DNA from: a virus
Reading direction: 5' to 3' (one strand)
DNA: 64,000 bases
IMG/VR virus record: IMGVR_UViG_3300036770_008028
Location: 64,001 to 128,000 of that record
The notes beneath the pieces were generated by a model. The model had not been told where the DNA came from, did not search any database, and saw only the letters and a list, made by a program, of their open reading frames with translations. A program made the translations under genes and the position numbers. How positions within the stretch are numbered: position 1 is the first letter of the stretch; each line of letters starts with the position of its first letter. Of this stretch, positions 19,937 to 44,036 are shown in pieces.

Positions 19937-20236
19937 ATGAGCGATCTCACTGAAAAAATACGCACTCGATTTGCCCACGAAGCCGCCAAAAAAATCCTCC
20001 GAGAAAAATATCAGGCCAAGATGCTGTTTGCACATGCAGGTGGCATGTGGCGGGCAGGCCCGGAATTACAGACCACTCTGTTGACCTGCCCTGATTCAGA
20101 GGCAGTGCTGCTCGATGTGTATGAAACACCGGTAAAAGTCCAAACACAAGAATTGTATCGTGTGTCTCAGCAGCGTTGGCAAGAGCAGATGAACGCTTGG
20201 TTGACTGAATGGACCGAACTGCAACGACAAAGATGA
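19937..20236 (+). CDS. Hypothetical protein, 99 aa
   Basis: First gene of the coupled cluster; ATGA overlap with the next gene. Confidence 0.65.
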   Translation: MSDLTEKIRTRFAHEAAKKILREKYQAKMLFAHAGGMWRAGPELQTTLLTCPDSEAVLLDVYETPVKVQTQELYRVSQQRWQEQMNAWLTEWTELQRQR

Positions 20237-21039
20237 AAGGTGTGTTGGTCTATGCTTTCAACAACGGCCGCGTGGACTATTGGCGCCAGGCCGTGTGGTG
20301 CGCTGACCGCGTGTCACGACATCTGGCCCTGCCTGTGACCATAGTGACCGATCAGCAGAGCCAACAAGATCGGCACTGCAGCCACGACATCGTGATTGCC
20401 CAGGCACGTTCTGGCGGAACTAGATTGTACGATCACAAAAATGACACAGCCGGGCACGCATGGTACAACAGCAATCGGTATCAGAGTTATGATCTAAGTC
20501 CTTACGAACAGACCCTGGTCCTGGACAGCGACTATGTGGTCTGCAGCGATCAGTTGCTGACCTTGTTTGGTAGCGGCATCTCTGTCACAGCCATGAAGCA
20601 TGTGTACGATGTGACCAACAGAGACCAATTCCGATTGTATCAACACATATCTGCGCACAGAGGATTGCATCACTATTGGGCCACTGTGCTGTACTTCGAC
20701 CGCAGTGTGCTTTCGCGAGATTTCTTTGCACTGATGAACATGATTTCCAATAACTACAATCACTATGCACAGATCTATGACATGCCCAGCCGACCTTTCA
20801 GGAATGACTTCGCTGTGAGCATAGCCTTGAACACGATATATGGTCATGTGCCGGAAGCCGTTCCAGAGATCCCCTGGGCCATGGCCAATGTTTTCAGCGA
20901 CGTAGATATCACGCAGATATCTGATGATGTGTTTGATCTCACTTATGCAGCAGGCAGCCAGGCACGGCGTGTGCGGATCTCTGGACAGGATTTCCATTTT
21001 ATGAACAAAGTGGCGTTGGAGAAGATCTGTGCAGTTTGA
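20233..21039 (+). CDS. GT-A-fold glycosyltransferase-like protein
   Basis: LSPYEQTLVLDSDY with a DxD motif. Start MKGVLVY at the ATGA overlap. Confidence 0.65.
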   Translation: MKGVLVYAFNNGRVDYWRQAVWCADRVSRHLALPVTIVTDQQSQQDRHCSHDIVIAQARSGGTRLYDHKNDTAGHAWYNSNRYQSYDLSPYEQTLVLDSDYVVCSDQLLTLFGSGISVTAMKHVYDVTNRDQFRLYQHISAHRGLHHYWATVLYFDRSVLSRDFFALMNMISNNYNHYAQIYDMPSRPFRNDFAVSIALNTIYGHVPEAVPEIPWAMANVFSDVDITQISDDVFDLTYAAGSQARRVRISGQDFHFMNKVALEKICAV

Positions 21040-21838
21040 ACACGAACGCGGATACTTGGTGATCGCCCAGAATACTGACACAGTGGACTATCTGCGCTGT
21101 GCCCGTGTGTTGGCCCGTAGCCTGCGCCGTGTGGAACCCGAGGCCAAGATATGTCTCCTCACTGATCGCGCTGACGTTGACGCTGAAGATTTTGATTTTG
21201 TAAGGACTTTCCCCTTTGGTGACCAAAGCGGAGACAGTGAGTGGAAGTTGCACAACGATTGGCAGTGCTTCTATGCTACGCCTTTCCGCCAGACCATCAA
21301 GATCGAAGCCGACGTAGTGGTACCCCACAGGATAGATCATTGGTTTGATGTCTGCCAGAGTCGAGACGTGGTCTTGACCATTGGTGCGAGAAACTGGCGC
21401 AACGAGTTATCCCCATCCCGTCATTATCGCAAAGTGTTTGACGACAACGACCTTCCTGATGTATACAATGCCATCACTTACTGGAGATTTAGCCGAGACG
21501 CTGAGATCTTTTTCAATACAGTAAAAAAGATCATGGGGGCCTGGCCAGCAGTGATGTCCGAATTAAAATTCGCGGCTGATCAACCCGTGAACACTGATCT
21601 GGCCTATGCGGTAGCAGCAAAGATGCTGGGCACAGAAAAATTCACGTTGCCGATGTCGGTTCCTAGCATGATACATCTCAAGCCTAGATTCAATAATCTG
21701 GCCTCTGACTCCTGGTGCAAAGAACTGGTATGGGAGATACTGCCCGATGGCATACGCATCAATACCGTGAACCAGACATGGCCTATACACTATCAGGAAA
21801 AAGCATTCGCCGAAGAGTTGGAGCGCCACTATGGATGA
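21029..21838 (+). CDS. GT-A-fold glycosyltransferase-like protein (paralogue of the previous gene)
   Basis: TPFRQTIKIEADV (ExD); NTDLAYAVA matches RNDFAVSIA of the upstream paralogue. Confidence 0.6.
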   Translation: MQFEHERGYLVIAQNTDTVDYLRCARVLARSLRRVEPEAKICLLTDRADVDAEDFDFVRTFPFGDQSGDSEWKLHNDWQCFYATPFRQTIKIEADVVVPHRIDHWFDVCQSRDVVLTIGARNWRNELSPSRHYRKVFDDNDLPDVYNAITYWRFSRDAEIFFNTVKKIMGAWPAVMSELKFAADQPVNTDLAYAVAAKMLGTEKFTLPMSVPSMIHLKPRFNNLASDSWCKELVWEILPDGIRINTVNQTWPIHYQEKAFAEELERHYG

Positions 21839-42023: not shown

Positions 42024-43096
42024 TCCGCGATGTACTCCACTTGCAGATCCGTAAGTTCGGGATAGATAGGTAGGCTCAACACTCTACGACACAACGCAGA
42101 TGCTGAACTAAGGAATGAAGGTCCTGGCCATTGCCGATAGATGTCGATCTCGTGCAAAGGCTGGGCGTAATGTACCTTGGTCTCGATGCCACGTATAGCG
42201 AGATTTTTTTGTAGGATATCACGACCTTCTACATCGATCACGAATTTATGGAATGAATGATCATGCCAATTCTCGCGTGTGGTCAGACAGCGCACAGCAC
42301 TTGCTCCTAATTTATCCATCCAAAACTGGGCTATCTCGGCCCTGCGTTTCTGCCAATCATCAAGATAACGAGTCTTTACCAAAAGTCCTGCACAGTCGAT
42401 TTCACTCATGCGGCTATTGGTTCCAACATCATGATGGTTGGGCTTGCCGTTGTTACGCCGTGACTGTGCGTAGCGATAAAGATCGGGATCATTGGTCACA
42501 ACAGCACCACCGTTGCCGTAGGCAGCCAGATTTTTCATGGGATCAAAACTGATAGCGGCAGCCTGACCGATGCGCACAGCGCCGCCAGCCAGCCAGTGTT
42601 GAGCAGCATCTTCTATTACAAGACCATCATGGAGCACTGTATGGCGCCATATTTTGGTATCCCCGATGTGCGTGATTGATGCTCCGTAGAGACCCACCAA
42701 CACCATGGCCTGATAGCTCACGTCCGGTATTGATCGCATGTCAAAGATGCCCGAGGCATCTACATCAACAAAATGAACGTCCCACCCTGCACGCATGAAT
42801 GCATTGGCAGTGGCCACATAGGTCACAGCCGGTATCAGCACAGTGGGAGGATTGGGTGCGCTATTCCGAGTGGCATAGTAGGTGGCAATGATTTCCAAAG
42901 CCTGTGTACCAGAATGGCAGGTCACTGCATATTTGCTGCCATTGCGTCGTGCCAGCCAGTTTTCGAACTCTGCTGTGAAATTGCCATCCATAAGATTGCC
43001 CGATCTCAGCACCTCATCTGTGGCATCTAGGATCTCAGATCTGAGATTGCTATACTGTTTTTGGAGCCCAGTAAACGGAATCTTTAAACCAAGCAT
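41990..43096 (-). CDS. DegT/DnrJ/EryC1/StrS family PLP sugar aminotransferase
   Basis: SGTQALE, TYVATANA, IEDAAQ, SFDPMKNL (PLP Lys), GGAVVT, LSLPIYP. Confidence 0.9.
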   Translation of the reverse strand: MLGLKIPFTGLQKQYSNLRSEILDATDEVLRSGNLMDGNFTAEFENWLARRNGSKYAVTCHSGTQALEIIATYYATRNSAPNPPTVLIPAVTYVATANAFMRAGWDVHFVDVDASGIFDMRSIPDVSYQAMVLVGLYGASITHIGDTKIWRHTVLHDGLVIEDAAQHWLAGGAVRIGQAAAISFDPMKNLAAYGNGGAVVTNDPDLYRYAQSRRNNGKPNHHDVGTNSRMSEIDCAGLLVKTRYLDDWQKRRAEIAQFWMDKLGASAVRCLTTRENWHDHSFHKFVIDVEGRDILQKNLAIRGIETKVHYAQPLHEIDIYRQWPGPSFLSSASALCRRVLSLPIYPELTDLQVEYIADQVRDCVTSSG

Positions 43097-44036
43097 GATA
43101 TCTCTGGAATCCTTCTTCAATGTCCACCTTGGGGTCAAAGCCAAAATCCCTGCGAGCCCGATCGATGTTCAGAGCGCCGCGGCTGGGGAAATCCGCGTCT
43201 TTGTCACGTACTTCTACGGTGCCACGGCCTGCTATCTTCACAGCAAGATTGGCTGCATCCAGCAGGCTCCATGAATGGCTTTTGGTTATGTTATAGGTTT
43301 GATTTCTCACTGTGGGACTCACGGCAGCAGCCACGATACCATCAGCGGCATCTTCTACATAGGTAAAATCCAAGGTCTCAGAGGCACCATTGACTTTGAG
43401 TGTTCCGCCGCGCATGGCAGTGAGCAAGAATTTAGAGATCACTCGATCTTCTACATCAAGTTCACCATATACCGCACTGGGACGGATGATCACATGATCG
43501 AACAGACCGCGCCGTGTGTAATCGCGCACCAACCATTCTCCGGCCAATTTCATGATACCGTACTGTCCTTGTGGCCGGCATTCAGCATCTTCTCGCACAT
43601 CGTCAGTGAAGTCACCATAGACCATACTGGACGAGATATAGATGAATCGACTTACATGGTGTTTTTTAGATTCTTCTAAGAGATTCAACAGACCTTCACT
43701 CATGGCGCGGCTGCCAATCATGGGATTCACGTTGACCACTTTCTGTCTAGGAAAACTGGCCATGTGTATCACCATATCGGGCCGATATTGGCGCATCATC
43801 CAATTGATACCGTCATTGTCAGCGATATCGATCTTGTGCGTTTGCAGTCCGACCTCTGGGATCTTCTTGCGCCGTTCGGCCATGAGATAGTCTAATTCAT
43901 CTTGGGGGACCAAACCGTAGTTTGTGCGTGTGTCGGCGATCGAGACATCGTGCCCTAGGTCCAACAATCTACGCACTACATTGTGTCCAATAAGACCCAG
44001 CCCACCGGTGACTAGGATTTTTCTTTTTATTTCCAT
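43050..44036 (-). CDS. NAD-dependent NDP-sugar epimerase/dehydratase (extended SDR)
   Basis: ILVTGGLGLIG, SSSMVYG, YGIMK (YxxxK), DFTYVED. Confidence 0.9.
   Translation of the reverse strand: MEIKRKILVTGGLGLIGHNVVRRLLDLGHDVSIADTRTNYGLVPQDELDYLMAERRKKIPEVGLQTHKIDIADNDGINWMMRQYRPDMVIHMASFPRQKVVNVNPMIGSRAMSEGLLNLLEESKKHHVSRFIYISSSMVYGDFTDDVREDAECRPQGQYGIMKLAGEWLVRDYTRRGLFDHVIIRPSAVYGELDVEDRVISKFLLTAMRGGTLKVNGASETLDFTYVEDAADGIVAAAVSPTVRNQTYNITKSHSWSLLDAANLAVKIAGRGTVEVRDKDADFPSRGALNIDRARRDFGFDPKVDIEEGFQRYHAWFKDSVYWAPKTV

Follow-up and report, generated by a model that had tools for sequence, protein, structure and literature searches.

The locus

The window considered here is a stretch of 64,000 nucleotides, bases 64001-128000 of the 157,498-base IMG/VR record IMGVR_UViG_3300036770_008028, which comes from an uncultured giant freshwater phage. 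The CheckV completeness of the source record is 44%, which implies a genome of about 350 kb, and about 97% of the 157-kb contig is coding. Positions 19937-44036 of the window form an island of about 24 kb that encodes glycosyltransferase-like proteins, sugar-modifying enzymes and an array of radical S-adenosylmethionine (SAM) enzymes (Table 1). Most of its open reading frames (ORFs) overlap by 4-35 bases, and none of its proteins has a hydrophobic 19-residue stretch of transmembrane strength. An ORF check confirmed this tightly coupled block, which had been delimited in a first-pass annotation made from the DNA letters alone. Nearly all of the enzymes listed in that annotation also hold up. 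Three paralogues of its genes (F4, F5 and rS6) lie outside these limits, and the gene for a 33-residue peptide inside the block had been missed.

The island stands directly behind virion genes. A baseplate wedge protein (window 2-2170) matches phrog_10646 with an E value of 5e-118 and shares 29-34% identity with proteins from jumbo phages of the Atu_ph07, Rak2 and PBECO4 types. Immediately 3' of its gene, a single plus-strand ORF of 4768 residues (window 2172-16478) has an FG-GAP repeat and weak CBM_5_12 and DUF2460 matches; the protein, a putative giant fibre or appendage of the baseplate, is kept in four relatives at 33-55% identity. It is followed by a 207-residue protein and by two fibre-like proteins of 480 residues (17309-18751) and 336 residues (18839-19849), the second of which is 30% Ser+Thr, and then by the island.

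Table 1. Features of the island, its 5' boundary and its outlying paralogues (window positions)
Feature	Position	Strand	Basis or comment
Hairpin terminator 3' of the 336-residue fibre gene	19883-19903	+	9-bp GC-rich stem, -13.9 kcal/mol, z -3.7, then UUUACUUUU
Sigma-70-like promoter, TTTACT-17-TATCAT	19901-19929	+	-10 box ends 7 nt before the ATG of a99
a99, conserved first island gene	19937-20236	+	Orthologues in L156-L159, L078, L019, L022
GT-A (GT8-like) candidate, LDSDY motif	20209-21039	+	Invariant D106 and D108; paralogue of 21029-21838
Paralogue of 20209-21039, motif EAD	21029-21838	+	hhalign probability 99.6%, E 2e-24; phrog_1903 E 5e-4
d109, conserved small protein	21831-22160	+	Orthologues in relatives
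X308, GT-A (GT2-like) candidate, DGD motif	22150-23076	+	Homologous to the GT-A domain of 40191-42023
205-residue protein, possible 2-oxoglutarate (2OG) oxygenase	23103-23720	+	HxD...H motif alone; variable slot
B12-type radical SAM, methylase-like, variable cassette	23717-25123	+	Radical_SAM E 7e-12, 46 bits
u150, variable slot	25120-25572	+	HMM and synteny searches
rS1	25569-26969	+	NF033640 302.9 bits, E 4e-90
rS2	26947-28296	+	NF033640 284.3 bits, E 2e-84
rS3	28278-29999	+	NF033640 397.4 bits, E 8e-119, residues 174-571
rS4	29918-31213	+	NF033640 325.1 bits, E 7e-97
rS5	31188-32504	+	NF033640 286.4 bits, E 4e-85
U385, conserved protein	32410-33567	+	True start probably near 32473; 51 invariant columns in 17 sequences
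pep33, 33-residue basic peptide	33564-33665	+	ATGA-coupled to both neighbouring genes
DUF6071, SGNH-like esterase/acyltransferase candidate	33662-34312	+	Pfam E 2e-15; GCSFTRGS motif
NodU/CmcH/TobZ-type carbamoyltransferase	34278-35759	+	Both Pfam domains, E 3e-47 and 2e-37
Amidinotransferase (AGAT/StrB1 family), 341 residues	35756-36781	-	Catalytic Cys and His/Asp aligned
F1, TEK-motif GT-B paralogue	36769-38022	-	Paralogue alignment
F2, TEK-motif GT-B paralogue	37953-39155	-	Paralogue alignment
F3, TEK-motif GT-B glycosyltransferase-like protein	39104-40192	-	AF2 pLDDT 90; GT-B fold matches
U610, tandem GT-A-like domains	40191-42023	+	AF2 pLDDT 90, GT-A fold
DegT/DnrJ/EryC1 sugar aminotransferase	41990-43144	-	E 3e-60; PF01041 204.7 bits (cut-off 19.8)
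SDR NDP-sugar dehydratase/epimerase	43050-44036	-	E 2e-42; Epimerase 145.7 and GDP_Man_Dehyd 112.4 bits, above cut-offs
F4, GT-B paralogue outside the island	47621-48775	+	33% identical to F3
rS6, sixth twitch-first paralogue, outside the island	50255-51481	-	Same Cys layout as rS1-rS5
F5, distant GT-B paralogue outside the island	57325-58323	-	Paralogue search
HMM, hidden Markov model; GT, glycosyltransferase; AF2, AlphaFold2; pLDDT, predicted local distance difference test; SDR, short-chain dehydrogenase/reductase; NDP, nucleoside diphosphate.

The radical SAM array

The island has a run of five radical SAM genes, rS1-rS5, all of which score above the curated cut-off of 170 bits for the family NF033640 (N_Twi_rSAM), at 284-397 bits. 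The Pfam SPASM match lies N-terminal to the Radical_SAM match, and the twitch domain comes first. With the outlying paralogue rS6, the enzymes share invariant cysteines C27, C46, C88 and C91 ahead of the CxxxCxxC core (C142, C146 and C149), and their alignment separates two subtypes, rS1/rS2 and rS3-rS6. The first-pass annotation had recognised five twitch enzymes, which stands, and had likened them to BtrN, which does not; the BtrN match has an E value of only 0.49. The array also gives weak NCBIfam matches to several peptide maturases. Literature searches found no characterised NF033640 member and nothing specific on the twitch-first family or on this island. In tblastn searches of cultured phages, rS5 found only matches that are about 23% identical, in RsoM2USA and Vibrio K566/K567. 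At its N-terminus, rS3 has about 170 additional residues (window 28278-28790) that the NF033640 model does not cover; this stretch is present in a part of the orthologues, and those of L012 and L060 are of similar length.

Enzymes for sugar modification

Three of the enzymes named at first pass, the carbamoyltransferase, the DegT aminotransferase and the epimerase/dehydratase, have HMM support above the Pfam cut-offs. The carbamoyltransferase scores 129.9 bits for Carbam_trans_N (cut-off 24) and 160.8 bits for Carbam_trans_C (cut-off 27); against the NodU equivalog NF041651 it reaches 139 bits with a cut-off of 1000, which makes it a member of the family and not NodU itself. The best equivalog of the DegT protein is PseC, at 156 bits against a cut-off of 423.5, and the SDR protein reaches 111 bits against the dTDP-glucose 4,6-dehydratase equivalog, whose cut-off is 365.

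The amidinotransferase has no Pfam match. As proposed at first pass, it belongs with the AGAT/StrB1 enzymes: phmmer matches include AGAT (4e-15) and StrB1 (3e-11), with HsvA and SxtG in the range 4e-15 to 2e-9, and its GGISCCT and HGDAVF align with GGFHCWT and HIDATF of AGAT, so that the catalytic Cys and His coincide. It is 76-86% identical in most relatives. The protein annotated as SGNH at first pass matches DUF6071 and is SGNH-like.

The gene between U385 and the DUF6071 gene encodes a peptide of only 33 residues, pep33, whose C-terminal half (...LEIRYRKKLKELRKRDPFIYK) is nearly invariant in 41 phage loci. Over its last 17 codons there are 2434 synonymous and 692 non-synonymous codon differences, which indicates strong purifying selection. 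The peptide has no Cys and no visible leader/core layout. It also precedes the carbamoyltransferase in two loci that have no radical SAM array nearby (L045 and L075), and because of this we read pep33 as a partner or regulator of the carbamoyltransferase, perhaps a partner subunit or a regulatory peptide of the arrest type. Since the peptide tracks the carbamoyltransferase alone, the idea that the radical SAM enzymes act on it was dropped. Its upstream neighbour, U385, gave no match in Pfam, NCBIfam or the PDB (sequence and profile searches), and the ESM Atlas returned noise. With hhalign, U385 showed no relationship to the GT-B or GT-A alignment.

Glycosyltransferase-like proteins

Structure prediction, which had been named beforehand as a check, gave GT folds for both of the GT-like proteins modelled, F3 and U610. 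The five GT-B paralogues F1-F5 share invariant R...H...ET...TEK residues. The first-pass annotation had called F1-F3 GT10-like, and the GT-B fold of F3 and the TEK motif of all three agree with this, whereas a match to a GT10 profile is lacking. Compared with the GT10 alpha-1,3-fucosyltransferases, F3 has the GT-B fold, the conserved Arg and the TEK-type donor-binding motif; it matches no Pfam family at E values up to 10. Two acidic residues in the F family are spaced 11 residues apart, and the spacing in GT10 enzymes is shorter. F3 has no PDB match in protein or profile searches, and tblastn against cultured phages found nothing. The BFVD matches of its model number in the dozens and are uncharacterised proteins from uncultured phages; one carries a fused UDP-glucose/GDP-mannose dehydrogenase domain. 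F2 and F3 form one protein of 738-761 residues in three relatives (P0121-P0123), and this fusion suggests that the two act together.

The four GT-A-like proteins differ in how well they are supported. U610 has the GT-A fold, with fold-level matches to A64R, Mimivirus R699 and the S-glycosyltransferases SunS and ThuS. It has nothing in PDB sequence or profile searches, and only uncharacterised viral clusters in the ESM Atlas. DFD-type motifs occur in its N-terminal domains; the C-terminal domain has AVFAK in place of a DxD motif. X308 is 27% identical to the GT-A domain of U610 by BLASTP, carries the DGD motif, matches Glyco_tranf_2_3 with an E value of 0.12 and has orthologues that are 61-75% identical. 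The two GT8-like proteins at the left end are the weak members of the set; each has a DxD-type motif, and the glycogenin-1 match of the first has an E value of 1.3 and is limited to the DxD region. The first island gene, a99, found no family in HMM searches.

Between these left-hand genes and the radical SAM array lies the sole phage-specific part of the island, a variable slot (23103-25572) with the 205-residue protein, the B12-type radical SAM and u150. The 205-residue protein was annotated as a 2OG oxygenase; the HxD...H motif is there, no HMM matches it, and it has no counterpart in the relatives examined. The B12-type radical SAM matches Radical_SAM, and its B12-binding match scores 17.2 bits, below the cut-off of 32.1. 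It matches PhpK/RiPP (ribosomally synthesised and post-translationally modified peptide) C-methylase subfamilies at E 1e-20 with scores far under their cut-offs. The gene is missing from this position in L156-L159 and stands elsewhere in L080 and L083; relatives have B12 radical SAMs and additional GT-B genes inserted at other points.

Conservation in phages and in bacteria

Synteny across relatives had also been set beforehand as a check, and the genes do co-occur. The carbamoyltransferase as query found 67 IMG/VR loci, about 45 of which share the order rS1-rS5, U385, (DUF6071), carbamoyltransferase, amidinotransferase, one to three GT-B genes, U610, DegT, SDR and ThyX, with identities typically of 45-85%. 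These sequence comparisons confirm that the core gene order is conserved beyond chance. Where longer DNA was available, a99, the two GT8-like genes, d109 and X308 were conserved as well. In all four long records (G001, G002, G003 and G005), the whole block follows the giant protein, the 207-residue protein and the fibres of 480 and 336 residues, and in two marine contigs (L082 and L084) the order is the same from the two fibre genes on, as far as the DNA extends. A megablast search of 50,697 phage records with the island gave no match, and the block is in no cultured phage.

Among 185,579 species genomes scanned, N_Twi_rSAM genes that are 34-44% identical occur in Bacteroidota, Bdellovibrionota, Elusimicrobiota, Acidobacteriota and other groups, and some of the genes stand on megabase-sized contigs. 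Most bacterial loci have one to three such genes, whereas the island has five to six anciently diverged paralogues in fixed order. The most frequent families among 120 ORFs that neighbour 18 chromosomal loci were PhyH oxygenases (9), radical SAM/SPASM proteins (7), GT2 (5), GT4 (3) and GDSL proteins (3), carbamoyltransferases (2) and epimerases (2), and one Bacteroidota locus combines a radical SAM, a carbamoyltransferase, a GDSL protein, UbiA and a GT4. These neighbour genes tie the N_Twi_rSAM family to glycoconjugate synthesis, and the radical SAM, the carbamoyltransferase and the SGNH protein form a recurring trio.

The top matches of the genome scan, L078-L084, are phage contigs binned into metagenome-assembled genomes (MAGs), and most have much or all of the island. 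The MAGs in question bear the names Haliscomenobacter, Legionellales, Betaproteobacteria TMED41 and Rickettsiales MED606; L078, L082 and L084 also hold fibre genes. The placement of these phage contigs is probably binning contamination by phage DNA, and it might hint at hosts.

Transcription of the island

The terminator and the sigma-70-like promoter in Table 1 separate the island from the fibre gene before it. The strict pattern of this promoter occurs at five sites in the 157 kb, all five intergenic and three of them past the end of the window. In L156, L158, L159 and L078, the -35 and -10 boxes and a gap of 6-7 nt to the ATG are retained, and the spacer sequence is different. The transcript of the plus-strand operon is thus probably leaderless, and we infer that host RNA polymerase would transcribe it as an early-type operon; early expression is suggested because the promoter is host-type and one of only five such sites in the contig.

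The contig has 17 copies of a second motif, ATAAATA, usually in the form (C/T)ATAAATA and mainly between genes. Most of its sites are 18-50 nt upstream of gene starts, including those of the tail tube, tail/fibre proteins, baseplate hub, baseplate wedge and the 480-residue fibre. To judge from this distribution, it is the T4-type late promoter class of the phage. There are (C/T)ATAAATA sites at window 17253 and 17278, and no ATAAATA site within 19937-44036. The first-pass annotation had described the island as lying beside the virion genes; the adjacency is conserved, but the island stands outside the transcription unit of the fibre genes.

A proposed pathway and its acceptor

The observations comprise the families to which the enzymes belong, two predicted folds, the aligned catalytic residues in the amidinotransferase, the synteny and the lack of membrane segments. 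From them we infer a pathway in the cytoplasm that builds and attaches sugars, and the order of its steps, its substrates and its acceptor are part of that proposal. The SDR and DegT enzymes would convert a host NDP-hexose into an NDP-amino-deoxyhexose, and the amidinotransferase would turn the amine into a guanidino group with arginine as donor. The carbamoyltransferase, with pep33 as its putative partner, would add a carbamoyl group and the SGNH-like protein would add or remove an acyl group. Each of the five N-terminal-twitch radical SAM enzymes could make one radical edit of a sugar, that is an epimerisation, a dehydration, an oxidation or C-C/C-methyl chemistry. Finally, the four GT-A-like proteins and three to five GT-B proteins would assemble an oligosaccharide on a soluble acceptor.

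Among possible acceptors, we tentatively favour fibre or baseplate proteins of the phage itself, whose genes lie directly 5' of the island. Their conserved adjacency points to them, and other viruses offer precedents. Several observations weigh against this choice. T4-like genomes generally keep their gene order, and for this reason adjacency is weak evidence. The terminator and the host-type promoter set the island apart from the fibre genes, and the virion genes have NATAAATA late promoters; a host-type promoter suits an early function at least as well as it suits virion decoration. In addition, the island has no sugar nucleotidyltransferase, U385, a99 and d109 have no assignable role, and the C-terminal GT-A-like domain of U610 is the one without DxD.

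The same features bear on the strongest alternative, remodelling of the host envelope, in which the modified NDP-sugars would be put on lipopolysaccharide (LPS), O-chain or capsule precursors at the cytoplasmic face and exported by host flippases, and the early change of the surface would block competing phages or progeny. The promoter, host-type, probably leaderless and kept in relatives, suggests early expression, and the lack of the late motif agrees with it. The authors who described a fibre-adjacent cluster with GT8 genes and radical SAM cassettes in other phages read it in this way (PMC7029224), and the bacterial relatives of the radical SAM genes lie beside genes for GT2, GT4 and UbiA prenyltransferase. 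However, the island encodes no membrane protein, initiating phosphoglycosyltransferase, flippase, polymerase or ligase, its position behind the fibre genes is fixed, and its core is 60-85% identical across phages of probably different hosts, whereas surface antigens vary. Of these two readings, we give some preference to virion proteins as the acceptor and regard host envelope remodelling as the less likely.

A soluble guanidino/carbamoyl pseudo-oligosaccharide, aminoglycoside-like and acting on the host or on competitors, is improbable. The reaction types are those of aminoglycoside tailoring (StrB1-type, TobZ/NodU-type, DegT and B12-type radical SAM), and no acceptor has been identified. Against it, Pfam and NCBIfam scans of the island ORFs found no cyclitol synthase, exporter or self-resistance gene, known aminoglycoside pathways use fewer than the 7-9 glycosyltransferase-like proteins seen here, and the twitch enzymes are NF033640 members and not relatives of BtrN.

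Still less probable is hypermodification of DNA, in which the glycosyltransferases would decorate a modified base as in the T-even phages. The early-type promoter and the adjoining gene for the thymidylate synthase ThyX could be taken to favour it. The first-pass annotation saw no entry enzyme for DNA modification in the window, and this now extends to related records: there is no ThyA-family hydroxymethylase or 5-hydroxy-dCMP synthase in G000, G001 (89% complete), G003 and G005, the canonical ThyA of G004 (363 bits) merely substitutes for ThyX, and none of the five records has a C5-methyltransferase, TGT/DpdA or QueC. A Tet_JBP search gave no match, but its control was also silent. The matches to the T4 enzymes lie within 1 to 2.5 Z units of those to about thirty unrelated GT-B enzymes. 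A newly described route to 5-hydroxycytosine also requires a ThyA homologue (PMC13326640). DNA is thus an unlikely acceptor. A QueD-like gene (6-pyruvoyl-tetrahydropterin synthase; G000:C1:153617-154177, minus strand) was considered as a sign of a 7-deazaguanine pathway and set aside, since the record has neither QueC nor TGT; the gene probably serves pterin metabolism.

Finally, a RiPP-like maturation, in which the radical SAM/twitch enzymes would cross-link or epimerise a small phage peptide such as pep33 before its glycosylation, is very improbable: most characterised SPASM/twitch radical SAMs do act on peptides, the peptide maturase matches, the SunS and ThuS matches of the GT-A protein and a strongly conserved peptide inside the operon would fit, but pep33 has neither Cys nor a leader/core layout and accompanies the carbamoyltransferase even where the array is lacking, and the bacterial N_Twi_rSAM neighbourhoods are rich in glycosyltransferases and not in peptides or proteases.

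A more specific proposal, which we regard as doubtful, is that the five ordered twitch radical SAM enzymes run sugar edits that have not been described before and, together with an amidinotransferase that depends on arginine and a peptide-assisted carbamoyltransferase, would yield a cationic guanidino/carbamoyl glycan that is new to viruses, is made from the first minutes after infection and controls adsorption from its place on the fibres or the host surface.

Relation to known systems

The nearest described type of island is the host recognition cluster (HRC) of pelagimyophages and cyanomyophages (Zaragoza-Solas et al. 2020; PMC7029224). Like the island, the HRC is large, lies beside tail-fibre genes in aquatic T4-like myophages and has glycosyltransferases, most often GT8, along with LPS-type sugar genes and radical SAM cassettes whose presence varies (PMC7029224); the variable slot behaves like these cassettes. 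However, the HRC is hypervariable and non-syntenic (PMC7029224), whereas about 45 contigs keep the gene order of the core described here, at 60-85% identity, and variation is limited to the slot and to inserted extra GT-B or radical SAM genes. Twitch-first radical SAMs, a carbamoyltransferase and an amidinotransferase go unmentioned in the HRC paper (the string 'carbamoyl' has 0 occurrences; PMC7029224). The conserved core and its chemistry are not in the literature; a paper on a 'moraphage' notes only four core glycosyltransferases.

Virion glycosylation encoded by viruses is known from the chlorovirus PBCV-1 (A64R), from the fibril glycans of Megavirinae and from the capsid and tail-tube glycans of mycobacteriophages (reviewed in PMC9614988); virion glycosylation is also the subject of Freeman et al. 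2023, as cited in PMC12619734. The likeness lies in the use of the virus's own soluble glycosyltransferases and of amino-sugar pathways (4,6-dehydratase plus DegT-type aminotransferase) that decorate virion proteins. The difference is that, to our knowledge, none of those systems uses radical SAM enzymes, an amidinotransferase or a carbamoyltransferase.

The similarity to aminoglycoside tailoring (StrB1, TobZ, StrS/BtrR, BtrN and GenK), by which the first-pass annotation had characterised the island, holds as an analogy of reaction types, in that amidination, carbamoylation, transamination and B12 radical SAM chemistry are all encoded. It goes no further, as the island has no cyclitol-forming enzyme, exporter or resistance gene and misses all equivalog cut-offs by far; the twitch enzymes are permuted, with the twitch domain first, and are no relatives of BtrN. 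The alpha- and beta-glucosyltransferases of T4 are also distant, at 7-10% identity, with scores near those of many other GT-B enzymes and with no hydroxymethylase or other entry enzyme found here.

Giant eukaryotic viruses and a few phages are known to encode glycosylation of their own. We know of no viral glycan that is modified by radical SAM chemistry, amidination or carbamoylation. New in the present analysis are the probably leaderless host-type promoter, pep33 and the absence of an entry enzyme for DNA hypermodification from the five records searched. Hundreds of abundant giant-phage contigs from fresh water and from the sea share the block, and a solved product would explain a large piece of phage "dark matter". 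It would also give a first function to a catalogued radical SAM family that is found in Bacteroidota and Bdellovibrionota as well. The product would bear on host recognition or on the exclusion of competitors by these phages, and the enzymes could serve for making modified sugars.

Genes adjacent to the island

Several other genes lie to the right of the island. The genes of an ABC importer (permease, ATPase and probable binding protein) occupy window 53833-56139 on the minus strand; the ATPase gave spurious weak matches near bacterial radical SAM loci. Between the island and the outlying F4 and rS6, a DUF2201 metallopeptidase/VWA protein is paired with a MoxR-type AAA ATPase (window 46222-50186, minus strand). 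A 78-codon ORF (window 44027-44263, minus strand) lies between the ThyX and SDR genes and is kept in 22 loci at 47% identity. The ThyX gene itself (window 44282-44974, minus strand) adjoins the island, and G004 has its canonical ThyA in this place (G004:C1:190654-191478). The two thymidylate synthases are interchangeable at this position, one sub-lineage having ThyA.

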